64,000 bases of DNA, from assembly GCA_027451865.1 (NCBI GenBank), contig DAIDHW010000001.1:1063329-1127328 (forward strand). Reading direction: 5' to 3'. The notes beneath the pieces are model-generated. The model had not been told where the DNA came from, did not search any database, and saw only the letters and a list, made by a program, of their open reading frames with translations. A program made the position numbers and the translations under genes. Within the stretch, counting starts at the first letter, position 1. Every line of letters starts with the position of its first letter. Shown piece after piece: positions 10,580 through 43,497 of the stretch. Origin of the DNA: Leptolyngbyaceae cyanobacterium clean351. GTDB taxonomy: Bacteria; Cyanobacteriota; Cyanobacteriia; DAIDHW01.

Positions 10580-12844
10580 ATGGCCACTGTTTATAGCCCA
10601 GCCACCTCCCCCCCGAAACAAAGACTCAGAGTCCCCAAGAAGCCCAAAAAAGAATACCTTTGGGTGATGCCTCACTCCGTAGAGTTCTTCACGGCACTGG
10701 CTAATTTCTTCAGGCCTGTCAGCTTAATAGCAAAATTGCTGGCCTTGTCCCTGATTGTAGTGGTGCCCGTGGGGGTGACCCTGTTTTTTAAAAATTTGCA
10801 AATAATCTTAACGGAAACAAAGTTTATCTACCAGGGGGGTATACCCTTCCTGCTACATATATTCATAAACATGTTTCTGATCGGCTTTTTTGTCAAGTTT
10901 GTCAAAAGTACAGTCTGTACCTCCTTTGGCGGCAAAGTTAAGGTTTTTGCTCTGACTTTAACCTTGGGGTTTCACCCCCGCTTCTACGTCGACCGCAAGG
11001 CGATCCTCCGGCTCCCTTGGCGTTACCGCATCATCACCTTCACTACCCCCATGTTATTTCGCTTGGGGATTATTTCCTATGCCGTCTTAATCTGGTACTG
11101 GACTCGGAACACCGGTATTGGCCTGACGGGCTCCCTAGGTACCTTTGCGCTCCTGTTAGCTCACTCCTGCTTCTTTGAGCTGCTGTTTGAGTCTACCCCC
11201 GTAGCCTCGGTGGATGGTTATTACCTATTGATCACCAGTCTAGGAATCCCGACTAACTCCCTGATGCGCACCTTTGAGGCGTTTGGCTTGATGATCAGTG
11301 GCCGTCCCCTGCCCCCTCACTTCAATTGGCGCAAGCGGCTCACCACTACTACTATCACCGTGCTCTCGGTGATTTTCCACCTATTGCTTGTGGGTGCCTT
11401 GAGCTTTCTGTGGGCCCACGGTTTTAATGACACCTACCCCGGCGTCTTGGGAGAGGGCTCAGAATATTTGTTCTATGTAATTTTCGTTACTATTGCCTTC
11501 TACCGACCGGTTAAACGGCGCGTTAAGGCCTACTGGCAGGAAAATCCCTGGCAGGGTCCAGCCTGGTTGCTGGTGGCAGGGCCGGTAGCGGTGATGACAG
11601 GGTTAGGCGTGCTTTTATTTTTGCCCTTCACCTACCAGCCCAGCGGCGATGTGCAACTGTTTGCTCCCCAAGTGGTGTCCATCCAAGCCCAGATTTCCGG
11701 AGTAGTCACCCAGGTCAACTACCCCGGGGGCACCACCCAGGTGATTCCAGCCAGCACCGTCTTAGGTACTATCACTTCTGTTGAAGTTAACAACTCCATA
11801 CTCACGACCGAAGATGCTATCCGCAAAGGCCACTCGGATATCAAGACCCTAAAATCCGAGTTGGCGCTGCTGCGCGATATCCCCCGCCCCGAGGATGTAG
11901 CAGTGGCTCAGCAGAAGGTTGCGATAGCTAACCAGGCGGTGGCTGTGGCTCAAGAGGGAGTGGCTGTGGCTGCAGCCCAACTCCGAACGGACCAGCAAAA
12001 ATCCCAGTTTAGTAGCCGCGAAGCAGCCCGTTATCAGCAGCTCTACCGGCGGGGGGTAGTATCCCTGCAGACTGAGGAGAACTTTACCAAGCAAGCTGAG
12101 GACGACCATGACCAGGTGCTTGTGGACCTAGAAGCAGTTAGTCAAGCCCAGCAGACCGTAGCCCAAAGTCAGGAAGTTTTGGCGGTGGCCAAGGGCAAAT
12201 TGCAAGAGGTACTCAGCGGTGCTGACCCGGCGGCCATTGCCCGTAAAGCCTCCCAGATGGAGGCAGCCGAGAAGAATCTGGCAAGGTTGCAGCAGGTATC
12301 TGCTTACTATCGCCAGCAGCAGTCCCAAGGGAAACTACTTATGCCCATCACCGGGCAGCTGGTCACCCCCTACCTCAATCAGAAGGTAGGCATTTACCTG
12401 AAGCAGGGTGAGACCTTCGCCTTGGCCTCCCCCATGGAGCATCTGCGCGCGGAAATGCAAGTGATCCAAACTGACAGCGCCATGGTTGAGCCGGGTCAAC
12501 TAGTACAGATTCACCTAATGGAGTTCCCAGATACTACGTTCCTTGGTCAAGTAGAGGCTCTGCAACCGCAGTTTTCTGAAGCTACTAACGAGTTGATCAT
12601 CCCCACCGATAGTTCAAGCGCTGATGACCCCCAGACTCCGCTCCAATATCTTTCACCTATTCCCTCCACTGACCCGGCTCGGGTACTGCGGGCGACCATT
12701 CGCCTGCATCCGGGCTACCCTGACTTGAAAGCTGGGATGAGTGGCTATGCCAGGATTCAGGGACCGATCCGGCCCTTTGGGGTAGCGCTCACCCACCCCT
12801 TCACCACCTTCTGGACCGTGGAGGGCTGGTCTTGGATGCCCTAG
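10580..12844 (+). CDS. Degenerate M50-like membrane domain fused to an HlyD-family periplasmic adaptor
   Basis: Multi-TM N-half with the M50-like scaffold (VCTSFGGKV...GFHPRFYVD; TPVASVDGYYLL). C-half has lipoyl halves (SIQAQISGVVTQV; LLMPITGQLV), a long coiled coil, and LKAGMSGYARI. Confidence 0.8.
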   Translation: MATVYSPATSPPKQRLRVPKKPKKEYLWVMPHSVEFFTALANFFRPVSLIAKLLALSLIVVVPVGVTLFFKNLQIILTETKFIYQGGIPFLLHIFINMFLIGFFVKFVKSTVCTSFGGKVKVFALTLTLGFHPRFYVDRKAILRLPWRYRIITFTTPMLFRLGIISYAVLIWYWTRNTGIGLTGSLGTFALLLAHSCFFELLFESTPVASVDGYYLLITSLGIPTNSLMRTFEAFGLMISGRPLPPHFNWRKRLTTTTITVLSVIFHLLLVGALSFLWAHGFNDTYPGVLGEGSEYLFYVIFVTIAFYRPVKRRVKAYWQENPWQGPAWLLVAGPVAVMTGLGVLLFLPFTYQPSGDVQLFAPQVVSIQAQISGVVTQVNYPGGTTQVIPASTVLGTITSVEVNNSILTTEDAIRKGHSDIKTLKSELALLRDIPRPEDVAVAQQKVAIANQAVAVAQEGVAVAAAQLRTDQQKSQFSSREAARYQQLYRRGVVSLQTEENFTKQAEDDHDQVLVDLEAVSQAQQTVAQSQEVLAVAKGKLQEVLSGADPAAIARKASQMEAAEKNLARLQQVSAYYRQQQSQGKLLMPITGQLVTPYLNQKVGIYLKQGETFALASPMEHLRAEMQVIQTDSAMVEPGQLVQIHLMEFPDTTFLGQVEALQPQFSEATNELIIPTDSSSADDPQTPLQYLSPIPSTDPARVLRATIRLHPGYPDLKAGMSGYARIQGPIRPFGVALTHPFTTFWTVEGWSWMP

Positions 12845-14115
12845 AAATTCACGGTCCCTGGTTTTACGCCGATCTGCGGGGGGTAGACTGGACTGGGCAG
12901 GACCGAGCCGGTGCCTGGTTGAGTGGAGCCAACCTCACCCGGGCCCAATTGGTGGGGGCAGACCTGCAGCAGGCCAACTTGGTAGGGGCTAGCTTACAGG
13001 CGGCAAACCTAGGGCAGGCGAAGCTCCAGGGAGCTAATCTGGTCCAGGCCAACCTCAGCGGTGCCAATCTCCAAGGAGCAGACCTGACAGGCGCCTACCT
13101 AGGAGAAACTAACTTCACGGCCGCCCAGCTAGGAGGAGCTAATCTCCAGGACACAGACCCTAACACTGGTAATTTCCATGGTGCCCTGGCGGACTGCCAG
13201 ACTCGCTTTCCCCCTGGCTTTATCCCCCCTGAGGCCTACTGGTTTCGACCAGGCTGCAGCTACCAGGGGTTCAACCTCCGGGGTCTGGACCTATCGCATC
13301 TGGACTTAACTGGGGTAGACCTGGCGGGGGCCTTCTGGGATGACTCCACTCGCCTACCCCCGGGGGTTTGCTGCCCGGGAGTCTGGCTGGGGCCGGGGGC
13401 TCAGCTGGCGGGTGCAAACTTGGGGGGCTTGAACCTGCAGGGGGCGGACCTAAGGGGGGCGGACTTGACTGGGGCGAAGCTAGTAGGCGCCGACTTAACG
13501 GGGGCAATCTTGGAGCGGGCGCGTCTCCTGCAGGCTGACTTGACGGGGGCAATCTTGGATCACACCCGGTTCCGGGGGGCAGTTTACGCTCCTGAAACCA
13601 GATTTCCCGAGGGCTTTGTGCCACTGGAGGCCTGCTGCATTAAGCCGGGGGCGGACCTGGCGGGGGTGGACTTAAGGGGGGCGGATCTGCGGCGGTTAGA
13701 CCTGCGGCGGGTGAACCTGCAGGGGGCCCAACTGGCGGGAGTACAGCTAGTAGGAGCTGTGTACAACCAACAGACTCGGTTCCCGGCTGACTTTACACCC
13801 GAGGGGGCCTACTGTCTGGGGCCGGGGGTTCAGCTGGCGGGGGCGGACCTTGGGGGACTAGACCTGCGGGGGGTGAATCTGAGCAGGGCTGACCTGACGG
13901 GAGCTAACCTAACTGGAACTACCTTGACGGGAGCTAACCTAACTGGAGCTACCTTGGCGGGAGCTAACCTAACTGGAGCTACCTTGACGGGAGCCCTATT
14001 TACCCAAGCCGACCTGAGCCACGCCAATCTGACTGGGGCCAGGGTTAAGGGAGCGGTGTGGGGTCAAGCCATCCTGACTGGGGCGGTCTTACCTACCGCT
14101 GAGCTTGGGAAGTGA
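12832..14115 (+). CDS. Pentapeptide repeat protein, modular
   Basis: A(D/N)LxG pentapeptide runs separated by four TR(F/L)Px(G/D) linkers. Start overlaps the upstream stop by 13 bp. Confidence 0.9.
   Translation: MDALEIHGPWFYADLRGVDWTGQDRAGAWLSGANLTRAQLVGADLQQANLVGASLQAANLGQAKLQGANLVQANLSGANLQGADLTGAYLGETNFTAAQLGGANLQDTDPNTGNFHGALADCQTRFPPGFIPPEAYWFRPGCSYQGFNLRGLDLSHLDLTGVDLAGAFWDDSTRLPPGVCCPGVWLGPGAQLAGANLGGLNLQGADLRGADLTGAKLVGADLTGAILERARLLQADLTGAILDHTRFRGAVYAPETRFPEGFVPLEACCIKPGADLAGVDLRGADLRRLDLRRVNLQGAQLAGVQLVGAVYNQQTRFPADFTPEGAYCLGPGVQLAGADLGGLDLRGVNLSRADLTGANLTGTTLTGANLTGATLAGANLTGATLTGALFTQADLSHANLTGARVKGAVWGQAILTGAVLPTAELGK
13891..13994 (+). repeat. 30-bp tandem repeat (~3.4 copies) encoding (T/D)LTGANLTG(A/T)
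   Basis: accttgacgggagctaacctaactggagct recurs with 1-2 substitutions per copy. Confidence 0.9.
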
Positions 14116-14118
14116 GGG

Positions 14119-14646
14119 TTATTCGGGGGTCGAGGTAATCACCTCGTTGGGACGGACAATCCGCTCCTGCCAGCGGAACCCCCGGCGGACCACGTGGGTG
14201 ATGGTTTGACTAGGCAGGTCAGGGCGGACCTCCCGCTCCACTACTCGGCAGGTATGGGGGTCTGGGTCCGAGGGAATTTCCAGGGGTACTACTCCACGCT
14301 TCTCTAAAAGGGTTAGGAGTTTAGAGCGCAAGCCCCCGAGGGAGCGGGGCAGGCGTCTTAAGGCAGGTGGCGCAGGGTCAGGGTTACGGGACCAGTAATC
14401 AATTAAGGGCTCAAGGCTATCGAATACTTCTAGGATTTCGAGGATCAGTTGCTCTTTTTCCGCTTGAGCATCCTTTTGGGCTTCCCGGAGGGCTCTTTCA
14501 CAGGTGGCGATTTGCTTGAGCTGATTTTGTAGGGATGCTTGCAGTTGCTCTTTGATCTGCGAGTCGAGGAGAAAAGCCCCGGAGGGTTGGGTAGGGGGTG
14601 GGTCGCAGCGGCGCCCTCTCAGGGCCTGTAACCATTTTTGAATCAT
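14119..14646 (-). CDS. GrpE-like nucleotide exchange factor
   Basis: Coiled coil, LILEILEVFDSLE helix, C-terminal beta domain DPDPHTCRVVE...TITHVVRRGFRWQERIVRPNEVIT resembling the GrpE signature. Confidence 0.8.
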   Translation of the reverse strand: MIQKWLQALRGRRCDPPPTQPSGAFLLDSQIKEQLQASLQNQLKQIATCERALREAQKDAQAEKEQLILEILEVFDSLEPLIDYWSRNPDPAPPALRRLPRSLGGLRSKLLTLLEKRGVVPLEIPSDPDPHTCRVVEREVRPDLPSQTITHVVRRGFRWQERIVRPNEVITSTPE

Positions 14647-14648
14647 AA

Positions 14649-15059
14649 TTATTCACTAAGTTTGATCAGGAGTTGCAGTTCTTCCGTCAGGACAGATTGT
14701 TCATCAACAACATCCTTTTCAGGTACATAGATGTTAGCCAATTCTGCAGCTAGGCTGTCAAACTCGGGCAAGATCTCCAGAAGAGTCTCCGGAACCGGGA
14801 TGGTTTGGGAGGTGAGCTTTTCCCGCCGGAACTTGGTCACGGCCGGTAAGACCGGAAACAACAAGTCCGCGATCAACCGCTTTTGGGGGTCTAGAAGAGA
14901 CTTTTGAGCCTCGCCGATAGCCTGGGGAGAGTAGCGCTTTTGCTTGAGAGCCGACATTTGGGCCCTGACGATTTCCTGCTTGTCGGCACTCCGTGACAGC
15001 CCCAATATATAGTAGGGGTTGGTTATGGGGGAGGAAACAGATACAGAATTTTCTGCCAT
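14649..15059 (-). CDS. J-domain-like protein lacking the HPD motif
   Basis: NPYYILGLSRSADKQEIVRA...RYSPQAIGEAQKSLLDPQKR aligns by eye to J-domain helices. Start set at ATG 15059 (alternative 15116). Confidence 0.75.
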   Translation of the reverse strand: MAENSVSVSSPITNPYYILGLSRSADKQEIVRAQMSALKQKRYSPQAIGEAQKSLLDPQKRLIADLLFPVLPAVTKFRREKLTSQTIPVPETLLEILPEFDSLAAELANIYVPEKDVVDEQSVLTEELQLLIKLSE

Positions 15060-15174
15060 TGTGGTTGATTTGGAAATCACTAGGTTGGTTCTGATGACAC
15101 GACTATCAGTGGGCATTGTGTCTGACTGAATTGCCCCATCAACATTACTTAGAGCTGATTCTTAGGGACTCGTA

Positions 15175-15193
15175 GGATGGAGCAGCTCCATCC
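15175..15193. repeat. Perfect palindrome ggatggagc-a-gctccatcc
   Basis: 9-bp arms with a 1-bp spacer, in the gap between the large repeat gene and the J-like gene. Confidence 0.7.
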
Positions 15194-15333
15194 ACTTATT
15201 CTCTAACATGTTAGTCGCCGCGGTACGTACCGGTAAGGCTTCTTGCTCTGGCGATGTAAGAGCAGACCGCCTGGTATTCCTAGGTCATTTATGAGATTGG
15301 TGAATAACCTAGTTGTTCGGTTATTAAACCAGA

Positions 15334-18300
15334 TCATTCCAGATCGTTTATATTTTTCCATAGTACTATCAGATCAAGAAAACTAGGATTACCAGAACTC
15401 ACCATTTCTAGAGCAATCTTTCTTAGTAGTTCCGCTAGAGCGTGTTTGAGTCTGGGGCTGCCGGAGGCTAGGGCCCTTTGGACGGCCTGTTGGATACTGC
15501 CCCTTGAAACCAAGGCCAGCAGGTTCTGCCACTCCCGATTTATTTGCTCAAGCTCTATGTTTTGCTTAACCAGACGAATGAGCTCAACAATCATGGGGTT
15601 ATTAGGGTCAATACTCCTGAGATGATTGAGTCTTGTTAGTCCTTCCTCTGCAGATATCTTCTCCTTAGCTAAGTCATCACGAATTTTATCAACGCTACTG
15701 CCAACATAAAGTACTTTCGCCCCAGGGGTATGCAGTAATTCATACCAAAACTTTCCCAGTTCAAGCCTTTCCTCCAGGGATCTAAGACCCTGACTAAGCT
15801 TTCCTAGTAATTCGTTGAGAGTGTTATTCCACCCGGGATTGGCATTGATCTCAGACTTTATTTTCTCGAGTACGGGGAGTGATGAACGCCAATTCCCAGC
15901 CCTTAATTGGTTGCAACCCCAGTGGTAGTTGACTAGGCTGAGGGCAAATTTAGTCACCGGTGTATTAGGGGTGGCCTTAGGCTTAATTTCCATGGCCCTT
16001 GGCACGTTGTCTTGAAGGCAAGCTGCCACGGCTACCCCCCAGGAACTATAGAGGGCCTTATAGACCTTGTCGTCATAACTCTCGCGGCCGGTGAAATTGG
16101 TAGCCCAGTCCCGGTTAAACAACCGCAGGTATAGTCCTGGGGAAAGCAGGATCGAGTTAGACCTAGGTTCGGGCCGGGGGGACATTTCCTGAACAGACAT
16201 CTCCAGGTTGTACATATCCTTGATTCGGAGGTCATTTGAGGCAAGCACCAGCTCCCCTAGGCGACTTTTCATAGTCTCGGATATTTCCGGATAGTTAACC
16301 CCTGATGGCAGCCAGGGAATATTTTTGAGAGATGGGTCTTGATCTAGATTTAGTAAGACGGTGGACAGGATGGGAATCAGGTCCATCAAGGTGCTAGGCG
16401 TAGTAATGGCCCGGTAGTAGGCAGCCACCATCAAGTTATGTAGGGTAACCGGAGTGCGAAGGGATTCTGTTTGCCAGGCCGACCAGACATGAGTAAATAT
16501 TGTCGACCAGCTCTGACTCTGCCACAGTTGCTGCTCCAACCCGGGCTTAATATGGTTCTCGAGGTTGTACTTGACGTTTGGGTAGGCGGATAGGACACTG
16601 AGGTTTTTTAGGGAAATGGTTTGAGCCGCCTGCAGATCTCCCGAATCCACCTTATTTTCGATCTCACGGACAAGATGTATTGCTTGGTTTTTGTCCAGGA
16701 ATGTCTGGAGGGAATTGAGTTTATTTTTCACTGCAGGGGCCTGGCAGTGACGCCACTGTTCAACGGCCTTAGGTAATAAGCCAACCTTAATATAGGCTAA
16801 GCCAAGGAGGTAATATTTTAGCTCCAGATCTTGAATGGGCCCCTGGGCTAGGTGCTCAACCTCTTGCACCAGCTCCTCAGTGTCTTCTCGGGTGAGTTTT
16901 GCGTCGATTAACTGCTTCACGCGGATAACTAACCGGCGCCTTGCCACCTGCTGGGCCTTGGCAGGAGTAGGAGCCAGTCGTTTATACCCTACTTGGGCAG
17001 CGCTCCAGTCCCCGGCTGCCTCAGCTGACAGAGCAGTTGCTAACTCCTGCTCAAACTTCCCCCCGCAAATCTGCAGGGTATCTTGTAACTCCCCCAGTAG
17101 GGCCTGGCCTGCGGGTCTGGGAAAGTAATTTTGAGCTAATTGCAATCTGCGAATCGCTAGCTGATATCGCCGCTTCTCGGTCAGGTCCCGCACATTGTCG
17201 ATGACCTTCTCGTAGGCCTCCTCGCGCTCAATCTGCCGGGGGAGTTCCTGAAGAATTACCCCTAGGCCTGAGCTCTCCACCCAGTCTAGGCGCCCCGCGG
17301 CTTTGGCTAAGTCGTAGGCTTTTTGGTAGAGTAGGCGGCTGTCCTTAAAAAACAGTTGCTTGTACTTCTGGTCGGCCTGGGATTTGAGGTCTGCAAATTC
17401 CTGTTCCTGCCGAGCCAAACCCGCCCTAAAGTCGGCGATTAACTGGTGACCATCAGGGCGGTCAAAGCTGCCGATGAGCTTTTCTAGGAGGGTGAGGGCT
17501 TCTTTGTACCTGGACTGCCGCGCTAATTTGTACCTGGACTGCCGCGCTAAATCCCGAGCCTGGGATAAACCTGCCTCGTAGGCCTCCTCCCGCTCAATCT
17601 GCCGGGGGAGTTCCTGAAGAATTGCCCCCAGGCCTGAGCTCTCCACCCAATCCAGGCGCCCCGCAGCTTTGGCTAAGTCGTAGGCTTTTTGGTAGAGTAG
17701 GCGGCTGTCCTTAAAAAACAGTTGCTTGTACTTCTGGTCAGCCTGGGATTTGAGGTCTGCAAATTCCTGCTCCTGCCGAGCCAAACCCGCCCTAAAGTCG
17801 GCGATTAACTGGTGACCATCAGGGCGGTCAAAGCTGCCGATGAGCTTTTCCAGGAGGGTGAGGGCTTCCTTGTACTTGGATTGCCACGCTAAACCCCGAG
17901 CCTGGGATAAACCTGCCTCGTAGGCCTCCTCCCGCTCAATCTGCCGGGGGAGTTCCTGAAGAATTACTCCCAGGTCTGAGCTCTCCACCCAATCCAGGCG
18001 CCCCGCGGCTTTGGCTAAGTCGTAGGCTTTTTGGTAGAGTAGGCGACTGTCCTTAAAAAACAGTTGCTTGTACTTCTGGTCAGCCTGGGATTTGAGGGCT
18101 TGGAATTCCTGCTCCTGCCGAGCCAGACTTGATCTAAAGTCAGCGATTAACTGGCGAACATCAGGGCGGTCAAAGCTGCCAATTAGCTTTTCTAGGAGGG
18201 TGAGGGCTTCTTGGTACCTGGACTGCCGCGCTAAACCCCGAGCCTGGGATAAAGCTGCCTCGTAGGCCTCCTCCCGCTCAATCTGCTGGGGGAGTTCCTT

Positions 18301-18549
18301 GAGAGTTACCCCTAGGCCTGAGCTCTCCACCCAGTCTAGGCGCCCCGCGGCTTTGGCTAAGTCGTAGGCTTTTTGGTACTTTTGCAGGCCCTGCTTAAAC
18401 CGTGACCGCTCACAGAGCTGATCCCCGAGGCTTCTTAATTCCTGGAACTCCTTGAGGCAAGCTTTGGTCCGCGCCGCTTTGGCCTTTTTTAGTTGCTGGA
18501 TAACTTGATAGACAACCAGGACGACCGCAGCAACTGCAATCAGGTACAT
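15334..18549 (-). CDS. Membrane-anchored large alpha-helical (TPR-like) protein with 114-aa tandem repeats
   Basis: 1071 aa. N-terminal hydrophobic helix followed by a Lys/Arg-rich stretch, repeated YQKAYDLAKAAGRLDWVESS units, and TPR-like segments (YYLLGLAYIKVGLLPKAVEQW). RBS ggag upstream. Confidence 0.85.
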   Translation of the reverse strand: MYLIAVAAVVLVVYQVIQQLKKAKAARTKACLKEFQELRSLGDQLCERSRFKQGLQKYQKAYDLAKAAGRLDWVESSGLGVTLKELPQQIEREEAYEAALSQARGLARQSRYQEALTLLEKLIGSFDRPDVRQLIADFRSSLARQEQEFQALKSQADQKYKQLFFKDSRLLYQKAYDLAKAAGRLDWVESSDLGVILQELPRQIEREEAYEAGLSQARGLAWQSKYKEALTLLEKLIGSFDRPDGHQLIADFRAGLARQEQEFADLKSQADQKYKQLFFKDSRLLYQKAYDLAKAAGRLDWVESSGLGAILQELPRQIEREEAYEAGLSQARDLARQSRYKLARQSRYKEALTLLEKLIGSFDRPDGHQLIADFRAGLARQEQEFADLKSQADQKYKQLFFKDSRLLYQKAYDLAKAAGRLDWVESSGLGVILQELPRQIEREEAYEKVIDNVRDLTEKRRYQLAIRRLQLAQNYFPRPAGQALLGELQDTLQICGGKFEQELATALSAEAAGDWSAAQVGYKRLAPTPAKAQQVARRRLVIRVKQLIDAKLTREDTEELVQEVEHLAQGPIQDLELKYYLLGLAYIKVGLLPKAVEQWRHCQAPAVKNKLNSLQTFLDKNQAIHLVREIENKVDSGDLQAAQTISLKNLSVLSAYPNVKYNLENHIKPGLEQQLWQSQSWSTIFTHVWSAWQTESLRTPVTLHNLMVAAYYRAITTPSTLMDLIPILSTVLLNLDQDPSLKNIPWLPSGVNYPEISETMKSRLGELVLASNDLRIKDMYNLEMSVQEMSPRPEPRSNSILLSPGLYLRLFNRDWATNFTGRESYDDKVYKALYSSWGVAVAACLQDNVPRAMEIKPKATPNTPVTKFALSLVNYHWGCNQLRAGNWRSSLPVLEKIKSEINANPGWNNTLNELLGKLSQGLRSLEERLELGKFWYELLHTPGAKVLYVGSSVDKIRDDLAKEKISAEEGLTRLNHLRSIDPNNPMIVELIRLVKQNIELEQINREWQNLLALVSRGSIQQAVQRALASGSPRLKHALAELLRKIALEMVSSGNPSFLDLIVLWKNINDLE
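17209..18378 (-). repeat. Intragenic tandem repeat, unit 342 bp (342, 342, 366 plus a ~120 bp partial)
   Basis: The anchor ctttggctaagtcgtaggctttttggta starts at 17301, 17667, 18009 and 18351. Confidence 0.97.
17503..17550 (-). repeat. Perfect 24-bp tandem duplication (LARQSRYK x2) nested in one repeat unit
   Basis: tttgtacctggactgccgcgctaa at 17503-17526 and 17527-17550. Confidence 0.97.
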
Positions 18550-18566
18550 AGAGCTCTCCGGTTGAG

Positions 18567-19064
18567 TTAGGGGCGAGCGGGGGGCAGAAGATTATGGGTG
18601 ATCGGGATGACTAGCTTTTGGCCAATCTGTAGGCGACCGGGGTCTGGTTGGAGTTGGGGGTTGGCCTGATAGATGGCCACGAAGGTGGTTAACTGCCCAA
18701 ATTTGGCCGCGATGGCACTCAGGTTATCCCCGGGCTGGACTAGGTAAACCACCTGGGGGGGGGCAAGTTTGCGGGCGGGGGGGCGGGGGGCAACGGTCGG
18801 AGGAGAGACGTGACTTACCTGATGGGAAATCACGACTGCCAGGGGAGCCGGGGGGACCCGGAGGCGCAGTGTAGCCCACACCGCCAGGACCACTGCTAGA
18901 GGGAGCACTACCCAGGGGGTCAGGTTAGTCCTGGTAAGGACGGGGGGGGGTGCAAACTGGGGCAACTGAGCCAGACTAACCAGGGCTGTCAAGTCAGCAT
19001 CACAGTTAGGGCAGTGGGTGTGCTCTACCTGCTGATAGCCGCACACTGGACAGTCAAGGCTCAT
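18567..19064 (-). CDS. Zinc-ribbon / transmembrane / LysM protein
   Basis: CPVC...CPNC, TM WVVLPLAVVLAVWATL, Pro-rich linker, LysM YLVQPGDNLSAIAAKF...IYQANPQL...LQIGQKLVIP. ATGA overlap with the Hsp70 gene. Confidence 0.88.
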   Translation of the reverse strand: MSLDCPVCGYQQVEHTHCPNCDADLTALVSLAQLPQFAPPPVLTRTNLTPWVVLPLAVVLAVWATLRLRVPPAPLAVVISHQVSHVSPPTVAPRPPARKLAPPQVVYLVQPGDNLSAIAAKFGQLTTFVAIYQANPQLQPDPGRLQIGQKLVIPITHNLLPPARP

Positions 19065-21298
19065 CTCCTAATCCCCTTCTGAACTACTTGGCCTGGAGAG
19101 GTTTGGCTGAAGCTAGGTTCTAGTTCTCGGCACAGCTCCAGGAGCGGCTGCGCATCCCCAGCGTTAAAGGCTCTCATGGCCTGCTCAAACCGGAACTCTA
19201 ACTGTTGAGCCCGGGCCGGGTCGCTCCCCTCCACCCTCGCAATCCCCTCGAGGCACAGTACGGGGAGGTGAGCCTCCGGGGCTAGAGAGTCGATTTCCCG
19301 CTCTACATCTTGAGCCAGTTTTTCGGTCCCTCCCCAATCCCGTCGCTCCTGGGCAGCCTCGAGCTGGGTTTGGAGCTTGCGCAACCGGTCCTGCTGGGGG
19401 GACCCAATCAGCCGGTCACTCAGGTCGAGGTAGTTTCGAGTGCGTCTGGCCCAAAAAGCTGCTTCAATTCGAGCATCAGAGAGCTCCCACTCCAATTTGC
19501 CGTACTCATCACGGGCTTTTTGCAGCATGTCGGGGCGCTCTCGACCGCTCTCATCAATAATCTGACTGGCGGCCTTGATCACCGCCGCCGCCATTTCAGC
19601 CGCCTTCTGGGCCCCAAAACTGGTGAGCCGTCCCTCTTCATTGAGCTCATCAATAAAGCTTTCAAGATCCCGGTAGACCTTCTCGTCAGCTTGACCCCGG
19701 GAAAACCGGCAACTTACCTTGGAGGATGGGTCCTGCTTGAGGCTGGCAGTGATCTGTAGGGGGCTACTCTGCTCATCTAGTTCTAGGAGCACGACCACGG
19801 CGGTGCCAGCGGGATGATTATCTTCTAGTCCTAGCCACAGCTGCCCTACCTCCTCCTCCACCGTAACCTGGTCAAGATTACTGCGCACCTCATCGGGACT
19901 GAGGAACTTTAACTGTACTATTCTTTGGTCATCCGCCACGGTACGGAAGGTTTTCTGCTGGCGCACCGGCAGAATATCCCCTTTACTAATCACCTTTTCC
20001 ATACTCCCATCAGCCAGCTGGATGAAGTAGTCGCGGGAGACGGTGGAGGTCTTATCTACCATCCCAGCTGCCACGATCGCGGCTCCCTCCGCCACAGCGT
20101 ACATGGGCCGGGGGTGGCTAACTACCTTGTCGCTGCCAAAGGCGGCCCGGACCTGCTGTTGAACGTAGGGGATTTGGGAGGAACCCCCCACCAACAGCAC
20201 CGCATCCACCAGGTCCGGAGTATATTCGGAAATATTGATCGCCTCGTGGCAGATCTGAATCGTCCGCTGCACTTGGGCTGCAATCATCTCCTCAAGCCGG
20301 GTGCGGGTCAGCTCTACCTGCACAGGGATGATCATGCCGGCTTCCTTCAGGGGTGAATCGGGGTTTACCAGAACTTTGGTCTGGGTGCTAAGGTCGATTT
20401 TGGCTTTTTCAGCTGCCCTCCTCAGGTCCGCCTGAAACCGCACCCGGTCGTGGAAGGGCATCTGGGTAATTACCTGGTCCACGGCGGCTGCATTTTCCCA
20501 GCCCTCCTCTTCGGCAATTTTTTGCTTCACGTAGTTGACTATCTGTAAGTCAATGTCATCTCCTCCCAGCCACAGGTCCCCAGCCTTGCCCTGCTCAAGA
20601 AATTGGGTGCCGGCGCAGGTGATCACCGAGGCATCAAAGGTACCTCCACCGTAGTCGTACACTAGGATGGTTTTGACCTCAGCACTATCGGGGCTAAATC
20701 CGTAGGAAATTGCTGCCGCCGTCGGTTCCGCTAGCAATTCTAGGGGTGTAATTCCCGCTAACAAAGCCGCATCCCGGGTGGCCGATCGTTGCTTGTCATT
20801 GAAGTAAGCCGGGATAGTAATCACCGCCTGGTCAATCACATCCCCTCGGTAACCCGGCCGCTCCCGCAAGGCCGCTTGGCCGTTAGCTACTACCTGCTTG
20901 AGAATGGCCGCGGAGATTTCCTCCGGCCGGTACTCCCGTTGGGGCTGGCCCGCAAAAAATACTACTAAGCTATTCTCAGTGCCATCCCTGGGAGCGGCAA
21001 TTTTGTAGCCTACCCGGGCTTTCTGGGTAGCCACCGCCTCTTCCCCAAACCCCCGGCCCATTAGACGCTTGATCGAGGTAATCACGTTCCCGGGGTCACT
21101 CCCTAGGTAATTGTAGGCGGTTTCCCCCACCACTAGTTCAGGCTTCTCCTTGAGCCAGGCCACCATCGAACGGGTCAGCTTACGCTCCGGCACTGAGTTA
21201 GTGGCGGCAGTCACCACCTCGGGGTCCTGGTCAATCACAAACTTGAAAGCGCCGACGGAATTAGTGGTGCCGAGATCGATACCGATCGATTTACCCAT
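19061..21298 (-). CDS. Atypical Hsp70-family protein
   Basis: GIDLGTTNS, SIKRLMGR, TIPAYFND, EPTAAA, DYGGGTFD, LGGDDID, LLVGGSSQIP. C-terminal half is unlike DnaK. Start at ATG 21298. Confidence 0.93.
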   Translation of the reverse strand: MGKSIGIDLGTTNSVGAFKFVIDQDPEVVTAATNSVPERKLTRSMVAWLKEKPELVVGETAYNYLGSDPGNVITSIKRLMGRGFGEEAVATQKARVGYKIAAPRDGTENSLVVFFAGQPQREYRPEEISAAILKQVVANGQAALRERPGYRGDVIDQAVITIPAYFNDKQRSATRDAALLAGITPLELLAEPTAAAISYGFSPDSAEVKTILVYDYGGGTFDASVITCAGTQFLEQGKAGDLWLGGDDIDLQIVNYVKQKIAEEEGWENAAAVDQVITQMPFHDRVRFQADLRRAAEKAKIDLSTQTKVLVNPDSPLKEAGMIIPVQVELTRTRLEEMIAAQVQRTIQICHEAINISEYTPDLVDAVLLVGGSSQIPYVQQQVRAAFGSDKVVSHPRPMYAVAEGAAIVAAGMVDKTSTVSRDYFIQLADGSMEKVISKGDILPVRQQKTFRTVADDQRIVQLKFLSPDEVRSNLDQVTVEEEVGQLWLGLEDNHPAGTAVVVLLELDEQSSPLQITASLKQDPSSKVSCRFSRGQADEKVYRDLESFIDELNEEGRLTSFGAQKAAEMAAAVIKAASQIIDESGRERPDMLQKARDEYGKLEWELSDARIEAAFWARRTRNYLDLSDRLIGSPQQDRLRKLQTQLEAAQERRDWGGTEKLAQDVEREIDSLAPEAHLPVLCLEGIARVEGSDPARAQQLEFRFEQAMRAFNAGDAQPLLELCRELEPSFSQTSPGQVVQKGIRR

Positions 21299-21608
21299 GG
21301 TGTTTAGCGTGGTGGGAATGGCAGGGGTCAATACCCCACCGGGGGGAATTGCCCTGTATTATAACCCTCCCCCCCGGAATGTGTACATAAAGCCTAGGAT
21401 GACAAATGTATTTACCAGTAGGGGCATCCTGCCCGCTGTAATTAAGGCGTAGCAAGAGTTAACAAAACCTGAATCGGCCGGGAGAAGTCTGTTATATCTA
21501 GGATGCACCGGGTCAAGGCCTTGGACACCACCCCTGACCCGGCGGCCCGTGGCTCCCCTCTAGCTGGACCTATAACCCTCTAGGATGTCCTATTTACTTT
21601 ACTAGTTC

Positions 21609-21887
21609 ATGCAAAACCCCGTAGATCCGATTCTTGACCCTGGCACGCTCCTGCACACGGATACCCCAGACCTACGCGGAACCCTCCTAGAATTCCTTGA
21701 TTATCTCCAGGGAGACCCCCAGGCGCCGGCACAAATCCTAGAGACTTCTACAACCCAGGCGGAGATCCAGGCCCATGCCCAGCAACTCTCCTACCGGCGA
21801 GCCTGGCTGAGTGCCCTGCTCGCTGAAACAGAGCGAGAACTAGCGGTGGTCGAGCGCATTCTGGGCCAACAGGTTCCCCCTGCTTAA
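21609..21887 (+). CDS. Hypothetical protein (C-terminal coiled coil)
   Basis: 92-aa ORF with ATG start, ending 19 bp before the Rieske gene, no competing gene on either strand. Confidence 0.6.
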   Translation: MQNPVDPILDPGTLLHTDTPDLRGTLLEFLDYLQGDPQAPAQILETSTTQAEIQAHAQQLSYRRAWLSALLAETERELAVVERILGQQVPPA

Positions 21888-21906: not shown

Positions 21907-23001
21907 ATGAAACCTCTCATCCCAGTCGCCTCCTACACAGACCCCGCCATCTTTAAGCAGGAGCAGGCCCGCCTGTTTAACTCCCTGTGGATGTTTGCTG
22001 GCTTTACTAAGGATCTAGCCCAGTCCCAAGACTACGTCACGCGCAACATTGCCGGACAACAGGTGTTTGTCCAAAACTTCCAAGGGCAGCTGCGCGCCTT
22101 TGATAACGTTTGCTCCCATCGCTTTAGCCTGATCCACCAGCAGCTGGTTGGTCATGGAGCCGTCCAATGCCCCTACCACAGCTGGACCTACAACCAGGAA
22201 GGCATTCCCGTAGGAATTCCTCACCTAGAGGAGTTCCCCAACTTTTCCGAGGCTGACCGCTGCAGGCTGCGACTGCGGGAGTGGCAGGTAGAGGTATGCG
22301 GCCAGTTTGTGTTTGTCAAAGCTCCCGGCAGCCAATTCTCCGGGGGCCTAAGGGAGTTTCTCGGCCCCGCCTGGGACATCCTGACCACTTTCTCAGCGGG
22401 GATGGGCAATCAGTTGGACCGCTACCCGATGCGGATCCGGGCTAACTGGAAGGTAGTAGTCGAAAACACCCTGGAGAGTTATCACATTTGGTCTGTGCAC
22501 AGTGAATCCCTGGCTAAACATGGTCCGGTAGAGGAGAACTTTAACCTATACCCCCACCACTCCCTCTACCGCAGTCAGCCCCGCAAAACTCCCCCCAAAA
22601 CCCGCAAATTCCTAGCCACCTTCAAAGACCGCCAATTAGAGCTAGAGGGGTACCAACACTGCCTAATTTTCCCCCTATTAACCTTGGCGACGTTTTCTGG
22701 TTTGTCCTTGAGTGTGCACGTGATCAATCCCCAAAGCCCCGGGGAAACCCAAGCCACTAACTATACCTTTTGCGGCCGGCTTAAGGACCCTAGTTACGAG
22801 AAAATCCTCCAGGACATGAGCGGTCAATCCGCTGCAGCCTTGACCCGACAGGCCTGGCAGGAGGACCGCCCAATCTGTGTTCTAGTCCAACAGGGAATTG
22901 CCTCCCTAGACCAGAATCAGCCTAGGGAGGGGATCTTTAGCCAGGAAGAACAACGGGTGTATCACTTCCACCAGGCTTACATGGCCGCCATGGCCTCCTA
23001 G
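21907..23001 (+). CDS. Rieske aromatic ring-hydroxylating oxygenase alpha subunit
   Basis: Rieske ligands CSH...CPYH, mononuclear-Fe motif ENTLESYHIWSVH, C-terminal EDRPIC..VQQG. Confidence 0.9.
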   Translation: MKPLIPVASYTDPAIFKQEQARLFNSLWMFAGFTKDLAQSQDYVTRNIAGQQVFVQNFQGQLRAFDNVCSHRFSLIHQQLVGHGAVQCPYHSWTYNQEGIPVGIPHLEEFPNFSEADRCRLRLREWQVEVCGQFVFVKAPGSQFSGGLREFLGPAWDILTTFSAGMGNQLDRYPMRIRANWKVVVENTLESYHIWSVHSESLAKHGPVEENFNLYPHHSLYRSQPRKTPPKTRKFLATFKDRQLELEGYQHCLIFPLLTLATFSGLSLSVHVINPQSPGETQATNYTFCGRLKDPSYEKILQDMSGQSAAALTRQAWQEDRPICVLVQQGIASLDQNQPREGIFSQEEQRVYHFHQAYMAAMAS

Positions 23002-26799: not shown

Positions 26800-27345
26800 A
26801 TGGCCAGTGACCCCCCTGCCCCTTGGGGCCAACAATTGCGCAATCTAATTATCGTTTTGGTGGCCGTAGTGCTGACGGTTGCCTTAGCCCTGGGCCTAGA
26901 GGGTCAAGGGAGGGGAGTTTCTCTCAAAGCCTTAGCAGCAAACTCTATCCCCCTAGAGGTGGCTCTCACCAACGGCAAGCCGACCCTGATCGAGTTTTAT
27001 GCGGACTGGTGTACATCTTGCCAGGCCATGGCTAAGGACATGGCCGAGCTGGCATCCCGCTACCAAGACCGAGTCAATTTTGCTCTGCTAAACGTGGACA
27101 ATACTAAGTGGCTGCCGGAAATGCTCCACTATCAGGTAGATGGAGTGCCCCACTTTGTATTTTTGGACTCCCAGGCCACTGCCCTTGGCAGCGCCATCGG
27201 TGAGCAACCCCCCACAATTATGGCTGCCAACTTGGACGCTCTGCTGCACGGGGAGCGGCCCCCCTACCTCCAGACCGGTCACAGTTCCGACTTTGACCCC
27301 TTAGCTCCCTCGGGAGCTGCCGACCCGCGCAGTCACGGTGGCTAA
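26800..27345 (+). CDS. txlA: Membrane-anchored thioredoxin-like thiol:disulfide protein (TxlA/HCF164-like)
   Basis: N-terminal TM, EFYADWCTSC, DGVPHFVFL. Confidence 0.85.
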   Translation: MASDPPAPWGQQLRNLIIVLVAVVLTVALALGLEGQGRGVSLKALAANSIPLEVALTNGKPTLIEFYADWCTSCQAMAKDMAELASRYQDRVNFALLNVDNTKWLPEMLHYQVDGVPHFVFLDSQATALGSAIGEQPPTIMAANLDALLHGERPPYLQTGHSSDFDPLAPSGAADPRSHGG

Positions 27346-27360
27346 CTCTGGACCCTATTA

Positions 27361-28665
27361 ATGGACATCCCTGAGAAACTTTTTGTCTTAGGTCTGCTAG
27401 TCCTGGTCAATGCTTTTTTCGCTGCGGGGGAGATCGCCCTAGTTTCCGCTAATGATGCTCGATTAAGGGTTCTAGCCGAGCGGGGAGACCAGCGGGCCCG
27501 CCTAGTACTTAAAAATACTCAAAACAGCACCAAGCTTCTAGCCACAATCCAGGTGGTTCTCACCCTGGCCAGTTTCTTCACCTCAGCCACCGCTGCCCAA
27601 GGGCTAGTCGGACCTCTAGAACAACTCCTGCGCCAGATCCCCTGGTTGGGAGACAGGGTATACAATAGCGCTTTCGTCTTAATCACCCTTATGAGTGCCC
27701 TAGTGACCCTAGTGTTAGGGGAGCTAGTGCCGAAGCGGATTGCCCTGCGACATCCGGAACAGGCAGCGATCCTGACGATCATCCCGATTGCCTGGCTTGG
27801 TCGCCTGGCTGGCCCGGTGATCCTCTGGATTAGCCAACTCACTAATCTACTGTTGCGCCTCAGTGGCAATCACCCCGATGGCCCCGAGTCCCCCGTCAGT
27901 GTGGAGGAGGTGAGGGCAATGGTGGATGCGGCCCTACTAGGAGGAGCCGTCGGTGAACAGGAGCGACGGATTATTCATGGGGCGGTGGAGCTGAGTCAAA
28001 TTACTGTCCGGGCAATCATGGTCCCCCGGGTGCAGATTCAATACCTCAAGGCCACCACCTCCCTAGAGGAAGCCTTTCAGGTAGCCTCGGAAAATGCCCA
28101 TACCCGACTGCCCGTTTGTCATGAAGACCTGGACACGGTTTTGGGGATCCTCCACGTCAAGGACCTGATCCGGCCCCTAGGGGAGCTGCTTACCCACCCG
28201 CCTAGTCTGGGGGAGCTTCTACGGCCAGTCTGCTACGTCTCCGAAAGCAAGCTGGCCACGGATCTATTAGCGGAGATGCAAAGAAACCGACTGCATATGG
28301 CTATCGTCCGGGATGAATTCGGTGGCACTGCCGGCCTGGTGACCTTAGAAGACATCCTAGAAGAGATTGTCGGAGAGATCCGAGATGAGTACGATGCAGA
28401 GGAGGAGCGGGAGTTTCGGCGTTTGGGGGACCACGCAGGCATATTCAAAATTCGCGCTAGCTTGGCACGGGTCAATAATGAGCTGGAGGTCCGTCTCCCC
28501 AGGGAAGAGGCAGCTACGCTGGCAGGATTATTCATGCGGGAGCTGGACCGGCCCCCGGAACCAGGAGACCGCCTAGAGATTGACCACATCTTATTAGAAG
28601 TTTTGGCCGACGGCCTCCGGGTACGTGTGACTCGCTTATCACCAGGTCCTGAGGAGGACATCTAG
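27361..28665 (+). CDS. CNNM/CBS/CorC 'hemolysin family' protein
   Basis: NAFFAAGEIALVS, LVLGELVPKRIA, CBS pair, DEFGGTAGLVTLEDILEEIVGEIRDEYD. Confidence 0.92.
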   Translation: MDIPEKLFVLGLLVLVNAFFAAGEIALVSANDARLRVLAERGDQRARLVLKNTQNSTKLLATIQVVLTLASFFTSATAAQGLVGPLEQLLRQIPWLGDRVYNSAFVLITLMSALVTLVLGELVPKRIALRHPEQAAILTIIPIAWLGRLAGPVILWISQLTNLLLRLSGNHPDGPESPVSVEEVRAMVDAALLGGAVGEQERRIIHGAVELSQITVRAIMVPRVQIQYLKATTSLEEAFQVASENAHTRLPVCHEDLDTVLGILHVKDLIRPLGELLTHPPSLGELLRPVCYVSESKLATDLLAEMQRNRLHMAIVRDEFGGTAGLVTLEDILEEIVGEIRDEYDAEEEREFRRLGDHAGIFKIRASLARVNNELEVRLPREEAATLAGLFMRELDRPPEPGDRLEIDHILLEVLADGLRVRVTRLSPGPEEDI

Positions 28666-28669
28666 GGCT

Positions 28670-39178: not shown

Positions 39179-39430
39179 AAGTAATCCTGGGGTTAATGGG
39201 CAGTAACGGCACCGAAAGCTAGAAAGCAATCTAAACTATGACTACAATCTTAAGCCAATTGGGGGATCCCAGGTGATGTACTGCCAGAGCTTCCCCCACT
39301 TCCACAAGGCACCACAGCACAGCCTAAAATTTGGACTTGTCTTCTGACTACCTTTTCCGCTATCATCATGCCGCACCTTGTTCTAGGAGGGTGTGTGTTT
39401 CTTCGTACTAGCCCCTACCACATACCAGTA

Positions 39431-41140
39431 ATGAAAACTTTTATTGGCTCTTCTGCCCGGGTTGTTGCTTTGGGCTTTTTAGCGGCCCTCCTGCCCAGGG
39501 TAGCCCTGGCCCAAATCCCTCCCAGCATCCAGCCAGGCCAAATCCAGCGGCAACTAGCTCCCCTGCCGCCCTCTACTGGGCCTGCCCCTAATGTTCCAGT
39601 ACCAGTTCCGGGACAAGGTCCTAGCGTTGCCCCTGGCAATAATGAGGTGACCTTTACCATTACCTCCGTAGACATCGAAGGTTCTACGGTTTATAGCCAG
39701 GCACAACTGCGGCCCCTCTACGCCCCACTGCTAGGGCACCCTATCCATCTAGCGGATTTGTACGCCCTGGCTAGTCGTATCACCGCCATGTATCAGAAAG
39801 ATGGCTACCTACTGTCTGAGGCGGTGGTGCCGGAGCAGACCATCGAGAATGGCCAAGCCCGGATCCAGGTTATTGAAGGCTACGTACAATCGGTGAATTT
39901 TACTGGGGTCTCCCCCCGCCTGCAGCATACACTCCAGGGATATGCCCACCATATTGAGGCTTCTCGCCCCCTCAACAATAGTGTCCTGGAGCGCTATCTG
40001 CTCCTGATGAGTGACCTCTCAGGCCTGCACCTGAACGTCGCTCTCAATCCCGGTACGGTGCCGGGGGCAAGTGTCCTCGATGCCTCGGTGAACCTGAAGC
40101 CCTTTAGCCCCTTCATCGAGTTTGATAACCGGGGCAGCCAGCAGGTAGGCCCGCTGCGATTACAGGCGGGGGTTTACCTCAACTCTTTACTCGGAGAGGG
40201 CGAGCGGTTCAACATTGACTTTGCCACCACCCCAGAGGACGTCAGTCAGCTGCAGTACGGGGATGCCGGGTTAGTATTTCCCATTGGGAGTAATGGTCTG
40301 ACCGTTAATGTGGATGGCTCCTACACTGCCGTCCGGCCAGGGGGTACCTTCCAAACCTTCGACTTGAACGGCAGTAGCACCGTGATCAATATGGGGGTCA
40401 GTTACCCTCTGATCCGCTCGCGGGCCGAAAACCTCAACGTCAGCATCGGTTTCCAATACAACGACAGTAAAAACCTAACCCTGTTTACCGGCACGCCGGT
40501 GTACATCAGCGCAGACCGCCTGCGAGTCCTTAGCCTTGGCGTCGACTACAACCGCACTGACAGATTCGGCCTGACCACCGCCGACGCTACCCTGGCCGAA
40601 GGCCTAGGCATTTTAGGAGCAACCACTAATGGCACCTCCGCCCGCCCTCTGTCCGTGGCCAATGGCAGTGCTCAGTTTACTAAATTTAGCTTCCAAGCCA
40701 CCCGCCTTCAGACTTTGCCGGATCACTTCAGCCTCTTCCTGCTAGCTAACGGGCAGGTAACGGGGGACACCCTGCTGACGGAGGAGCAGTTCGGAGTAGG
40801 GGGGGCTACCTGCGGCAGCGCCTTTGTGTCCTTCCAGATTGCGGGAGACTCCGGGTACTGTGTGCGGACGGAACTAGCCCGCTCCTTCACCTACCGGTTC
40901 CAGCATCAAAACATGTTCACTCAGCCCTACATCTTTGCCGATTACGGTCAGACTTTCCTCAATAGTCCCACAGCCGCCCAGTCTTCTAGCAGCAGGCTGG
41001 CTTCTGCCGGTCTGGGGGTGAGGCAAAACTTCGGTCAGTACGTCAACCTGCAAGTGGAAATGGCTTTCCCCCTTCAGGACACGGGTACCGGCTTCACCCA
41101 AGACCCGCGTCTGTTCTTTACCCTACAGTCTTTGTTCTAG
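39431..41140 (+). CDS. ShlB/FhaC/HecB-family two-partner secretion outer membrane protein (TpsB)
   Basis: Signal peptide ending ALA-Q, POTRA motifs (ITAMYQKDGY; LERYLLLMSDLSG), FDNRGS, beta-barrel, C-terminal Phe. Confidence 0.9.
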   Translation: MKTFIGSSARVVALGFLAALLPRVALAQIPPSIQPGQIQRQLAPLPPSTGPAPNVPVPVPGQGPSVAPGNNEVTFTITSVDIEGSTVYSQAQLRPLYAPLLGHPIHLADLYALASRITAMYQKDGYLLSEAVVPEQTIENGQARIQVIEGYVQSVNFTGVSPRLQHTLQGYAHHIEASRPLNNSVLERYLLLMSDLSGLHLNVALNPGTVPGASVLDASVNLKPFSPFIEFDNRGSQQVGPLRLQAGVYLNSLLGEGERFNIDFATTPEDVSQLQYGDAGLVFPIGSNGLTVNVDGSYTAVRPGGTFQTFDLNGSSTVINMGVSYPLIRSRAENLNVSIGFQYNDSKNLTLFTGTPVYISADRLRVLSLGVDYNRTDRFGLTTADATLAEGLGILGATTNGTSARPLSVANGSAQFTKFSFQATRLQTLPDHFSLFLLANGQVTGDTLLTEEQFGVGGATCGSAFVSFQIAGDSGYCVRTELARSFTYRFQHQNMFTQPYIFADYGQTFLNSPTAAQSSSSRLASAGLGVRQNFGQYVNLQVEMAFPLQDTGTGFTQDPRLFFTLQSLF

Positions 41141-41162
41141 GGGGGCTGTAGTTATAGCTCCT

Positions 41163-41197
41163 AAGGGGGACTTGATCTAAACCCAGTCCCCTTTTTT
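41163..41197 (+). terminator. Rho-independent terminator after tpsB
   Basis: ggggact-(loop)-agtcccc followed by tttttt, between convergent genes. Confidence 0.65.
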
Positions 41198-41207
41198 AGC
41201 CGCCGTG

Positions 41208-43256: not shown

Positions 43257-43497
43257 AGGAGCTGCTGCCAAATAGGTCAAGGGAGGAAAGGACTCGAGGA
43301 TCCCTGACTAGCTAGCCAGAGACCCCGCGGCTGAGGGCTAGGGAAACTGGATGGGGACTTTAAGCGCTCCCCAGTCCGCGACCGGGATTTTTCCCTTGGC
43401 CGGGAGAAGGATAGGGAGCCAAGTCTAGTTTAGGATAGGAGAAGTTAGGAGCCCAGTCTGCGGGCTGGAACTGCTGGTTCTGTTATAGATTAACCTG

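Follow-up and report, generated by a model that had tools for sequence, protein, structure and literature searches.

A site-2-protease-derived pseudo-enzyme fused to an EmrA/HlyD-type adaptor, and its pentapeptide-repeat neighbour, in a Leptolyngbyaceae cyanobacterium

What might a membrane protease whose zinc site is gone contribute to a periplasmic adaptor that has no pump gene at its side? The question is raised by a stretch of 64,000 nucleotides from Leptolyngbyaceae cyanobacterium clean351 (contig DAIDHW010000001.1, positions 1,063,329 to 1,127,328; hereafter the window), in which open reading frame 1 (ORF1) joins a membrane domain of the M50 (site-2 protease) type to an adaptor and is followed directly by a pentapeptide-repeat gene, ORF2. 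A preliminary description of this locus had proposed that the dead protease acts as the inner-membrane channel or receptor of an ATPase-free export module, with the pentapeptide protein as its substrate or partner. The ORF1 protein is a membrane-anchored periplasmic adaptor of the EmrA/HlyD type, the anchor being a seven-helix pseudo-enzyme. As to function, we infer with moderate confidence that it is a non-proteolytic, envelope-spanning export or docking component whose cargo is the product of sulfotransferase-associated genes, with co-assembling paralogues and a cytoplasmic pentapeptide-repeat accessory. From its N-terminus the protein runs from a basic cytoplasmic tail through a seven-helix pseudo-M50 domain to an EmrA/HlyD-type adaptor, and the elements of the gene are as follows.

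10580..12844, + strand: fusion gene ORF1, 754 aa (ORF list and translation)
10661..11620, + strand: pseudo-protease membrane domain, residues ~28-347 (hhalign and exhaustive profile search)
10892..10906, + strand: site of the lost zinc motif, VKFVK for HExxH (H to V, E to K, H to K)
10946..10990, + strand: beta-hairpin after the pseudo-active-site helix, residues 123-137 (AlphaFold2 strands 123-128 and 132-137)
11198..11218, + strand: retained P-x4-D-G motif, PVASVDG, residues 207-213, with D212 at the position of the third zinc ligand
11624..12841, + strand: periplasmic adaptor, residues 349-754 (Pfam, PDB profile match, Foldseek)

The preliminary description had read VKFVKST at 10892-10912 in place of the zinc motif, and TPVASVDG from 11195 in place of the second M50 motif. 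Both are present, as residues 105-111 and 206-213 respectively, and all of its coordinates proved exact.

Library models do not recognise the membrane domain. The M50 family model PF02163 gave no match at E<=10 to the ORF1 protein or its five closest homologues, nor at E<=0.1 to nine further family members, and across Pfam and NCBIfam only the adaptor part of the ORF1 protein was detected. Similarity to M50 emerged through family profiles. With only the membrane domain as query, an exhaustive profile search returned 1680 representative clusters at E<=1e-3, of which 277 reached E<=1e-10, and the family profile picks up two cyanobacterial proteins that carry HExxH (461 and 509 aa, E 5e-15 and 9e-16). 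Both have intact HELGH/HEFGH and NxNPLxxxDGYY motifs, score above the gathering threshold of PF02163, and are matched by two NCBIfam models, NF041824 (daptide intramembrane metalloprotease; E 1e-37 to 1e-41) and NF058609 (YydH/LiaK). We assembled 120 homologues of one HExxH intermediate as a set of active M50 proteins (all with HExxH, 89 of the 120 with a precomputed PF02163 match) and aligned it with the dead family by hhalign, obtaining a probability of 99.6% and E 1.3e-23 over 267 columns. In this register HELGH falls on S-K-x-x-Q and NPLxxxDGYY on the retained P-x4-D-G motif. Smaller alignments of RseP-, EGY-, CBS- and small-type M50 proteins, taken from genome loci, had given E 0.04-0.18 and probabilities of at most 1.2%; the weak CBS-type alignment showed the expected register, and the whole set was superseded by the M50 set that carries the RRE (RiPP recognition element, RiPPs being peptides made on the ribosome and modified post-translationally). 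A Foldseek search of the whole structural model against the PDB returned adaptors for all of the best 50 matches. Together, the profile-profile alignment and the motif comparison support the earlier view of the membrane half as a catalytically dead M50 derivative and indicate that it descends from RRE-dependent M50 intramembrane leader peptidases of the daptide MpaP / YydH type.

Loss of the zinc site is a property of the whole family rather than local decay. In an alignment of 155 sequences (the window protein, five homologues from the first search and the best 149 representatives) HExxH is absent throughout: H, E and H stand at its positions in 0/155, and the consensus is S-[K/R]-x-x-Q, with K or R at the position of the E in 110 sequences and Q at that of the second H in 105. 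Because HExxH is replaced throughout the family, the pseudo-M50 domain is not a metalloprotease. Other parts of the site are kept. P207 is found in 153 of 153 filled positions, G213 in 147 sequences and D212 in 114; the N of NxxPxxxxDG is an E in the window protein and varies across the family, with P207, D212 and G213 retained. All residues that are invariant or nearly so family-wide (W172, P207, G117, G130, P133 and G213) are present in the window protein, which also has the commonest family residues R134, D138 and D212; this speaks for continued constraint on the window copy.

A structural model of the ORF1 protein, predicted by AlphaFold2 from a 127-sequence alignment, is confident (mean predicted local distance difference test score, pLDDT, 86.5; predicted template modelling score 0.64); a shallow alignment of 6 sequences gave a pLDDT of only 40. 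The model contains seven membrane helices, of which the pseudo-active-site helix spans residues 90-115, and the N-terminal tail of the protein is basic. By the positive-inside rule, the basic tail and the seven helices would put the pseudo-active site on the cytoplasmic side of the membrane and the adaptor in the periplasm. The site-2 protease fold includes a membrane-reentrant beta-hairpin. The hairpin at residues 123-137 aligns, in the hhalign register, with the segment directly after HELGH of the active M50 proteins, and we read it, from the known fold and not from a superposition, as the counterpart of that reentrant hairpin. The pseudo-M50 domain has its hairpin and P-x4-D-G groove elements conserved.

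The adaptor half is complete, as the preliminary description had held. Pfam HlyD_D23 scores 32.7 bits on the ORF1 protein against a cut-off of 30, a profile of the window protein and five homologues matches EmrA in the PDB at E 6e-9, and the best Foldseek match in the PDB is likewise EmrA (4tko, E 8e-17), followed by MacA and by the EmrAB-TolC and MacAB-TolC complexes. The model shows lipoyl-like strands, a four-helix alpha-hairpin at residues 401-582 (nucleotides 11780-12325) and a beta-barrel, with strands at 612-732, and ends in a short conserved C-terminal helix bearing W-S-W-x-P. Within that motif W750, S751, W752 and P754 are invariant in the window protein, in a paralogue on contig 5 of the same genome, and in the closest relatives of both.

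The preliminary description saw no ABC ATPase or TolC gene adjacent to ORF1, and we likewise find no ABC, RND, MFS, FtsX or TolC gene adjoining it. The nearest ABC genes lie 4.4 kb upstream, for an ATPase of the peptide-importer type, and 28 kb downstream, for an ABCD/SbmA-type protein; the latter (41208-43280) was considered as the pump and set aside for its type and distance. At 39368-43280 of the window this ABCD/SbmA-BacA-type gene adjoins, on the opposite strand, a gene for a TpsB-type (ShlB/FhaC, POTRA) outer-membrane transporter. Nor was a pump gene found within ~10 kb of family members in any locus examined. The genome itself contains three TolC-like genes, unlinked to ORF1, and eight HlyD_D23-type adaptors including the window gene and its paralogue; four of the adaptors adjoin RND pumps, one adjoins an FtsX-type ABC gene, and for the one at C1:464-465 kb no adjoining pump is listed. 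Among type I secretion parts, no C39/CLD-type exporter and no RTX-type substrate were identified, and TolC-like proteins and unlinked ABC half-transporters are present. The earlier idea of an ATPase-free export module thus stands as far as the lack of an adjacent pump gene is concerned; freedom from an ATPase is not borne out, since four MsbA-like ABC half-transporters (586-599 aa) without an adjacent adaptor are encoded elsewhere in the genome and a pump could therefore act in trans.

This leads to the alternative that survives best, namely that ORF1 encodes a conventional adaptor serving in tripartite efflux or in a type I secretion system whose pump, an ABC half-transporter or an MFS protein, is encoded elsewhere, with the pseudo-protease as an elaborate anchor. 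While such an arrangement would fit a complete, EmrA-like adaptor part, four ABC_membrane exporters lacking an adaptor at their side and TolC genes that are likewise unlinked, the other five pump-linked adaptors of this genome adjoin their RND or FtsX-type pump, and no pump stands beside family members in loci of several lineages. In addition, a domain of ~320 aa with invariant residues across at least 277 representative clusters (E<=1e-10) is hard to explain as a mere anchor. We regard this alternative as unlikely. The preferred reading, of a component in which the pseudo-protease itself has a role, draws on a second copy of the gene and on the genes that accompany the family.

Domain content varies across the family. 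The architecture RRE - membrane domain - HlyD adaptor is found in 86 of the 114 adaptor-carrying aligned sequences, and all five first-search homologues have the PqqD/RRE domain (Pfam PqqD, best E 3.5e-4). The window protein does not, in agreement with the preliminary description, and the family alignment holds RRE-less members in other lineages too. A hidden RRE upstream of ORF1 was considered and rejected: the frame is open for only 20 codons ahead of the ATG, and a tblastn search with the RRE matches contig 5 only. The adaptor part, used as a tblastn query, and the RRE of a homologue both led to the same gene there.

contig 5: 22108-23760, - strand: sister paralogue, outside the window, 550 aa (tblastn, alignment)

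Its product consists of an RRE (recognised by alignment only, Pfam PqqD giving no match at E<=0.01), a linker, one transmembrane helix and a HlyD adaptor with the same C-terminal motif; the pseudo-M50 core is cleanly deleted, and the family profile finds a single membrane domain in the whole genome. A maximum-likelihood tree built on the adaptor region groups the window protein with the contig-5 paralogue as its sister, with support 100/97. They have in common an 'IIPTD' insert that is absent from three other relatives aligned, and the paralogue's nearest database relatives are full-length proteins of 889-897 aa. The sister relationship and the complementary domains indicate that one ancestral three-domain gene, RRE-pseudoM50-HlyD, was duplicated in this lineage and that each copy lost a different module: the window copy stayed in the ancestral gene row, lost its RRE and evolved faster, and the contig-5 copy gave up the pseudo-protease but retained the RRE.

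Such a history also admits that the window copy is a redundant duplicate heading for loss, with the contig-5 paralogue doing the work. Its branch is longer (1.37 vs 0.48 for the paralogue), its RRE is gone with no remnant upstream, and the fragmented module of a Chlorogloea strain, described below, indicates that decay occurs. However, both ORFs are intact (754 and 427 aa), every family-invariant residue is retained, the structural model is confident, and loss of the RRE has parallels in the other lineages just mentioned. Moreover, the contig-5 copy is without the pseudo-protease that the whole family conserves and so could not replace it fully. We consider decay of the window copy improbable. 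The preferred reading takes both copies to be functional, and the next evidence for it comes from partner genes.

A Sulfotransfer_3 gene and a gene for a ~440-500-aa protein without Pfam match occur near the fusion gene at several loci (L005/L007, L053/L054, L065 and L050), which comprise cyanobacteria and two metagenome loci with more distant family members. An esterase or other alpha/beta hydrolase lies alongside in L005/L007 and L053/L054, L038 and L050 also encode a TPR protein, and polyketide synthase (PKS) genes are found in L053 and L065. The ~500-aa proteins of a cyanobacterial locus and of the distant metagenome locus L053 are plainly alike by eye. The genome of clean351 encodes such a protein on contig 3 (~26950-30470; L058 7954-11466), between a Sulfotransfer_3 gene and a gene for a probable lipoprotein esterase, and this protein is 63% identical to the Chroococcidiopsis-type one, which is encoded beside homologous fusion genes. 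Across 41 genomes at class level, the 4 with a strong fusion-gene match are exactly the 4 with the ~500-aa protein, a coincidence that, with the genomes taken as independent, has a chance of about 1 in 100,000. The PKS genes found beside the partner genes elsewhere suggest a sulfated lipid-like or polyketide-like product.

The gene that directly follows ORF1, and the further members of its row, are listed here.

12820..12824, + strand: GGAGG ribosome-binding site for ORF2, within the end of ORF1, with a 7-nt spacer to the TTG at 12832
12832..14115, + strand: pentapeptide-repeat gene ORF2, 427 aa, TTG start (Pfam PF00805)
21609..21887, + strand: gene for a small acidic protein, 92 aa (tblastn, 44% identity, E 7e-15)
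21907..23001, + strand: Rieske oxygenase gene, 364 aa (Pfam Rieske, Ring_hydroxyl_A)

Coupling of ORF1 to a pentapeptide-repeat gene that begins 13 bp inside its stop had been claimed from the sequence. The overlap is indeed 13 nt, with a TTG start, and the five closest cyanobacterial loci all have the orthologous gene as their downstream neighbour. PF00805 matches the ORF2 protein at E 3.7e-78 in 10 stretches of tandem A(D/N)LXX repeats, with repeat blocks split by four 'GA.Y..T.FP..F.P..AY' linkers; inspection by eye revealed neither an obvious signal peptide nor, at the C-terminus, a known secretion signal. Throughout the clade closest to ORF1 (36-39% identity; Aliterella, Chroococcus, one contig from a "Tatlockia" bin and a metagenome contig), a pentapeptide-repeat gene lies directly downstream of the fusion gene, encoding proteins of 494-850 aa with the same unusual linkers; it is kept in L005, L007/L039, L036 and L037, with a degraded form in L040. 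ORF2 is colinear with the downstream neighbour of a homologous fusion gene (36% identity, E 3e-77) and is the best match to that neighbour within its own genome. More distant family members have no adjacent downstream pentapeptide gene.

The row extends further. The 92-aa acidic protein of the window is the orthologue of a 111-aa protein whose gene follows the pentapeptide gene in related loci, and a 363-364-aa Rieske gene holds the same position in the row in L005, L007, L037 and L039, the L036 contig ending within its Rieske gene. In the window these two genes stand further downstream, indicating that a 7-kb minus-strand Hsp70-like cluster interrupts the ancestral row; the junction of the fusion and pentapeptide genes is left intact. 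This cluster, non-canonical and chaperone-like, occupies 14119-21331 (- strand) between ORF2 and the acidic and Rieske genes, and encodes a GrpE-like protein, a 155-aa J-like protein without a Pfam match, a 1071-aa protein of ~100-aa repeats, a LysM protein with an apparent N-terminal CxxC zinc-ribbon motif and a 756-aa Hsp70-like protein. Upstream of ORF1 are genes for an M23 peptidase (- strand), a histidine kinase and a Ser/Thr kinase.

Three of the related loci have features of their own. In Chlorogloea sp. CCALA 695 (L040, NZ_PVWN01000022.1, 7980-11530) the orthologous fusion gene and its pentapeptide neighbour are each split into several short frames, reflecting either a decaying module or sequencing errors. 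L037 (JACCVJ010000348.1, from a metagenome-assembled genome (MAG) labelled Tatlockia sp.) carries the fusion, pentapeptide, acidic, Rieske and sulfotransferase genes in a row and is probably a cyanobacterial contig mis-binned into a Legionellales MAG. In a Chroococcus MAG (L007, 12566-15100) the pentapeptide partner reaches 844 aa through an internal, near-exact duplication of ~330 aa.

These observations lend themselves to a working model in several steps. The pseudo-protease core would be kept as a ligand- or partner-binding module of the inner membrane, while the adaptor would oligomerise and dock to one of the three TolC-like channels of the genome. The assembly may export what the sulfotransferase, ~500-aa protein and esterase genes produce, or pass it on. 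A single adaptor ring probably contains both the window protein and the contig-5 paralogue, and the translationally coupled pentapeptide protein would be a cytoplasmic accessory on the cytoplasmic face of the machine and not its cargo. Of the earlier suggestion of 'substrate or partner', the second half, a cytoplasmic partner, is the more plausible for a protein with no obvious signal peptide.

Several observations weigh against this model. The conserved synteny includes genes without an obvious link, those for the Rieske oxygenase and the acidic protein, so that adjacency of the pentapeptide gene is by itself weak functional evidence. In clean351 the partner genes are on contig 3, unlinked from the fusion gene and with no PKS adjoining, and the co-occurrence across genomes comes from a small sample of 3 genera. 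The longer branch of the window copy could also mean relaxed selection. The four MsbA-like half-transporters leave room for a conventional pump, and the pump inventory covered ABC, RND and FtsX-type genes. Finally, among the public sequencing runs searched, none holds the stretch.

Other roles have to be weighed against the same evidence. A role outside transport, with the pseudo-protease as a scaffold or sensor, in the manner of other pseudo-proteases, that tethers the pentapeptide protein or keeps it sequestered, and with the adaptor reporting on or bracing the envelope, would account for a catalytic site that is gone from a groove that is kept, for a partner that appears cytoplasmic, and for the kinase and M23 peptidase genes upstream. 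Yet conservation with the family does not extend to those upstream genes, the hairpin and barrel typical of channel-docking proteins are complete in the adaptor, and the family's neighbourhoods are biosynthetic, not regulatory; there is, in our estimate, little chance that this is the explanation. That the pentapeptide protein is a cargo secreted without an ATPase is very improbable despite the tight, conserved coupling of the two genes, since it has no secretion signal obvious by eye, the paired proteins are 427 to 844 aa with expected beta-helix folds, we know of no precedent for export of a folded beta-helix without an energy source, and distant family members that do without the pentapeptide gene keep the sulfotransferase and ~500-aa neighbours, which argues that the core job of the family is independent of it. 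The export or docking model can also be sharpened to a version in which the pseudo-protease is the inner-membrane conduit or substrate-loading site of a pump-less, envelope-spanning exporter of sulfated lipid-like or polyketide-like products, with duplicated subunits, one bearing the RRE and the other the pseudo-protease, that co-assemble obligately in one ring, and with a pentapeptide beta-helix on the cytoplasmic face as gate or cargo-delivery factor; in this specific form we consider it doubtful.

Comparison with known systems places the ORF1 protein between several of them. The daptide leader peptidase represents the ancestral type, an intramembrane site-2 protease with a fused RRE that cleaves off the leader peptide, and relatives of the window protein share with MpaP the N-terminal RRE/PqqD-like domain (bioRxiv 10.1101/2023.03.08.531785). 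With M50 proteins of the MpaP and YydH/LiaK type (NF041824, NF058609) the window protein has a homologous polytopic core and the same helix-hairpin and P-x4-D-G elements; it differs in having VKFVK for HExxH, an added periplasmic adaptor and no RRE. A further difference is that no RiPP precursor peptide or tailoring gene was seen among the annotated neighbours of ORF1, small ORFs not having been searched exhaustively. Active M50 proteases with HExxH intact and no adaptor occur in other cyanobacteria (L051 8884-10413 and L052 4051-5436); they are of a common cyanobacterial type, their N-terminal region is RRE-like by eye, and their genes adjoin those of giant proteins of 2247 and 2725 aa.

A canonical adaptor is held by a single transmembrane helix or a lipid anchor, and its gene adjoins that of its pump. 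ORF1 shares with EmrA, HlyD and MacA the lipoyl-like domain, long alpha-hairpin and beta-barrel, EmrA being the best match in both sequence and structure, but its anchor is a seven-helix pseudo-enzyme and no pump is adjacent. In the RaxST-RaxA-RaxB system of Xanthomonas, a sulfotransferase, a HlyD-type adaptor and a peptidase-ABC exporter serve a sulfated peptide. A sulfotransferase is genetically associated with a HlyD-type adaptor in both cases; whereas the ABC pump of Rax includes an active C39 peptidase and its RiPP substrate is known, the ORF1 family is without adjacent pump or active peptidase and has PKS-type neighbours elsewhere. HglK of Anabaena, with DevBCA-HgdD, ties a pentapeptide-repeat protein to an adaptor-dependent exporter of heterocyst glycolipids. 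Here too a pentapeptide-repeat protein is linked to an adaptor, the likeness being known from the repeats only, but HglK is membrane-bound and DevCA is an ABC pump. Eukaryotes have pseudo-enzymes that arose from intramembrane proteases (iRhoms). Our literature searches found no description of a bacterial pseudo-enzyme that derives from a site-2 protease and is joined to a trans-envelope adaptor, nothing on RRE with HlyD or on PqqD with HlyD and M50, and, by titles and abstracts, nothing relevant that combines sulfotransferase, HlyD and pentapeptide proteins.

The reciprocal loss of domains in clean351 amounts to a natural experiment, suggesting that the recognition domain and the pseudo-protease are able to work from separate polypeptides. 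The family is large, with 277 representative clusters at E<=1e-10, yet its members are annotated only as "HlyD family" or "multidrug efflux pump", and it repeatedly stands beside sulfotransferase and PKS genes with no pump. If it does form an export route, it would represent a new way for natural products to cross the diderm envelope, and may provide a handle for finding unknown sulfated products.

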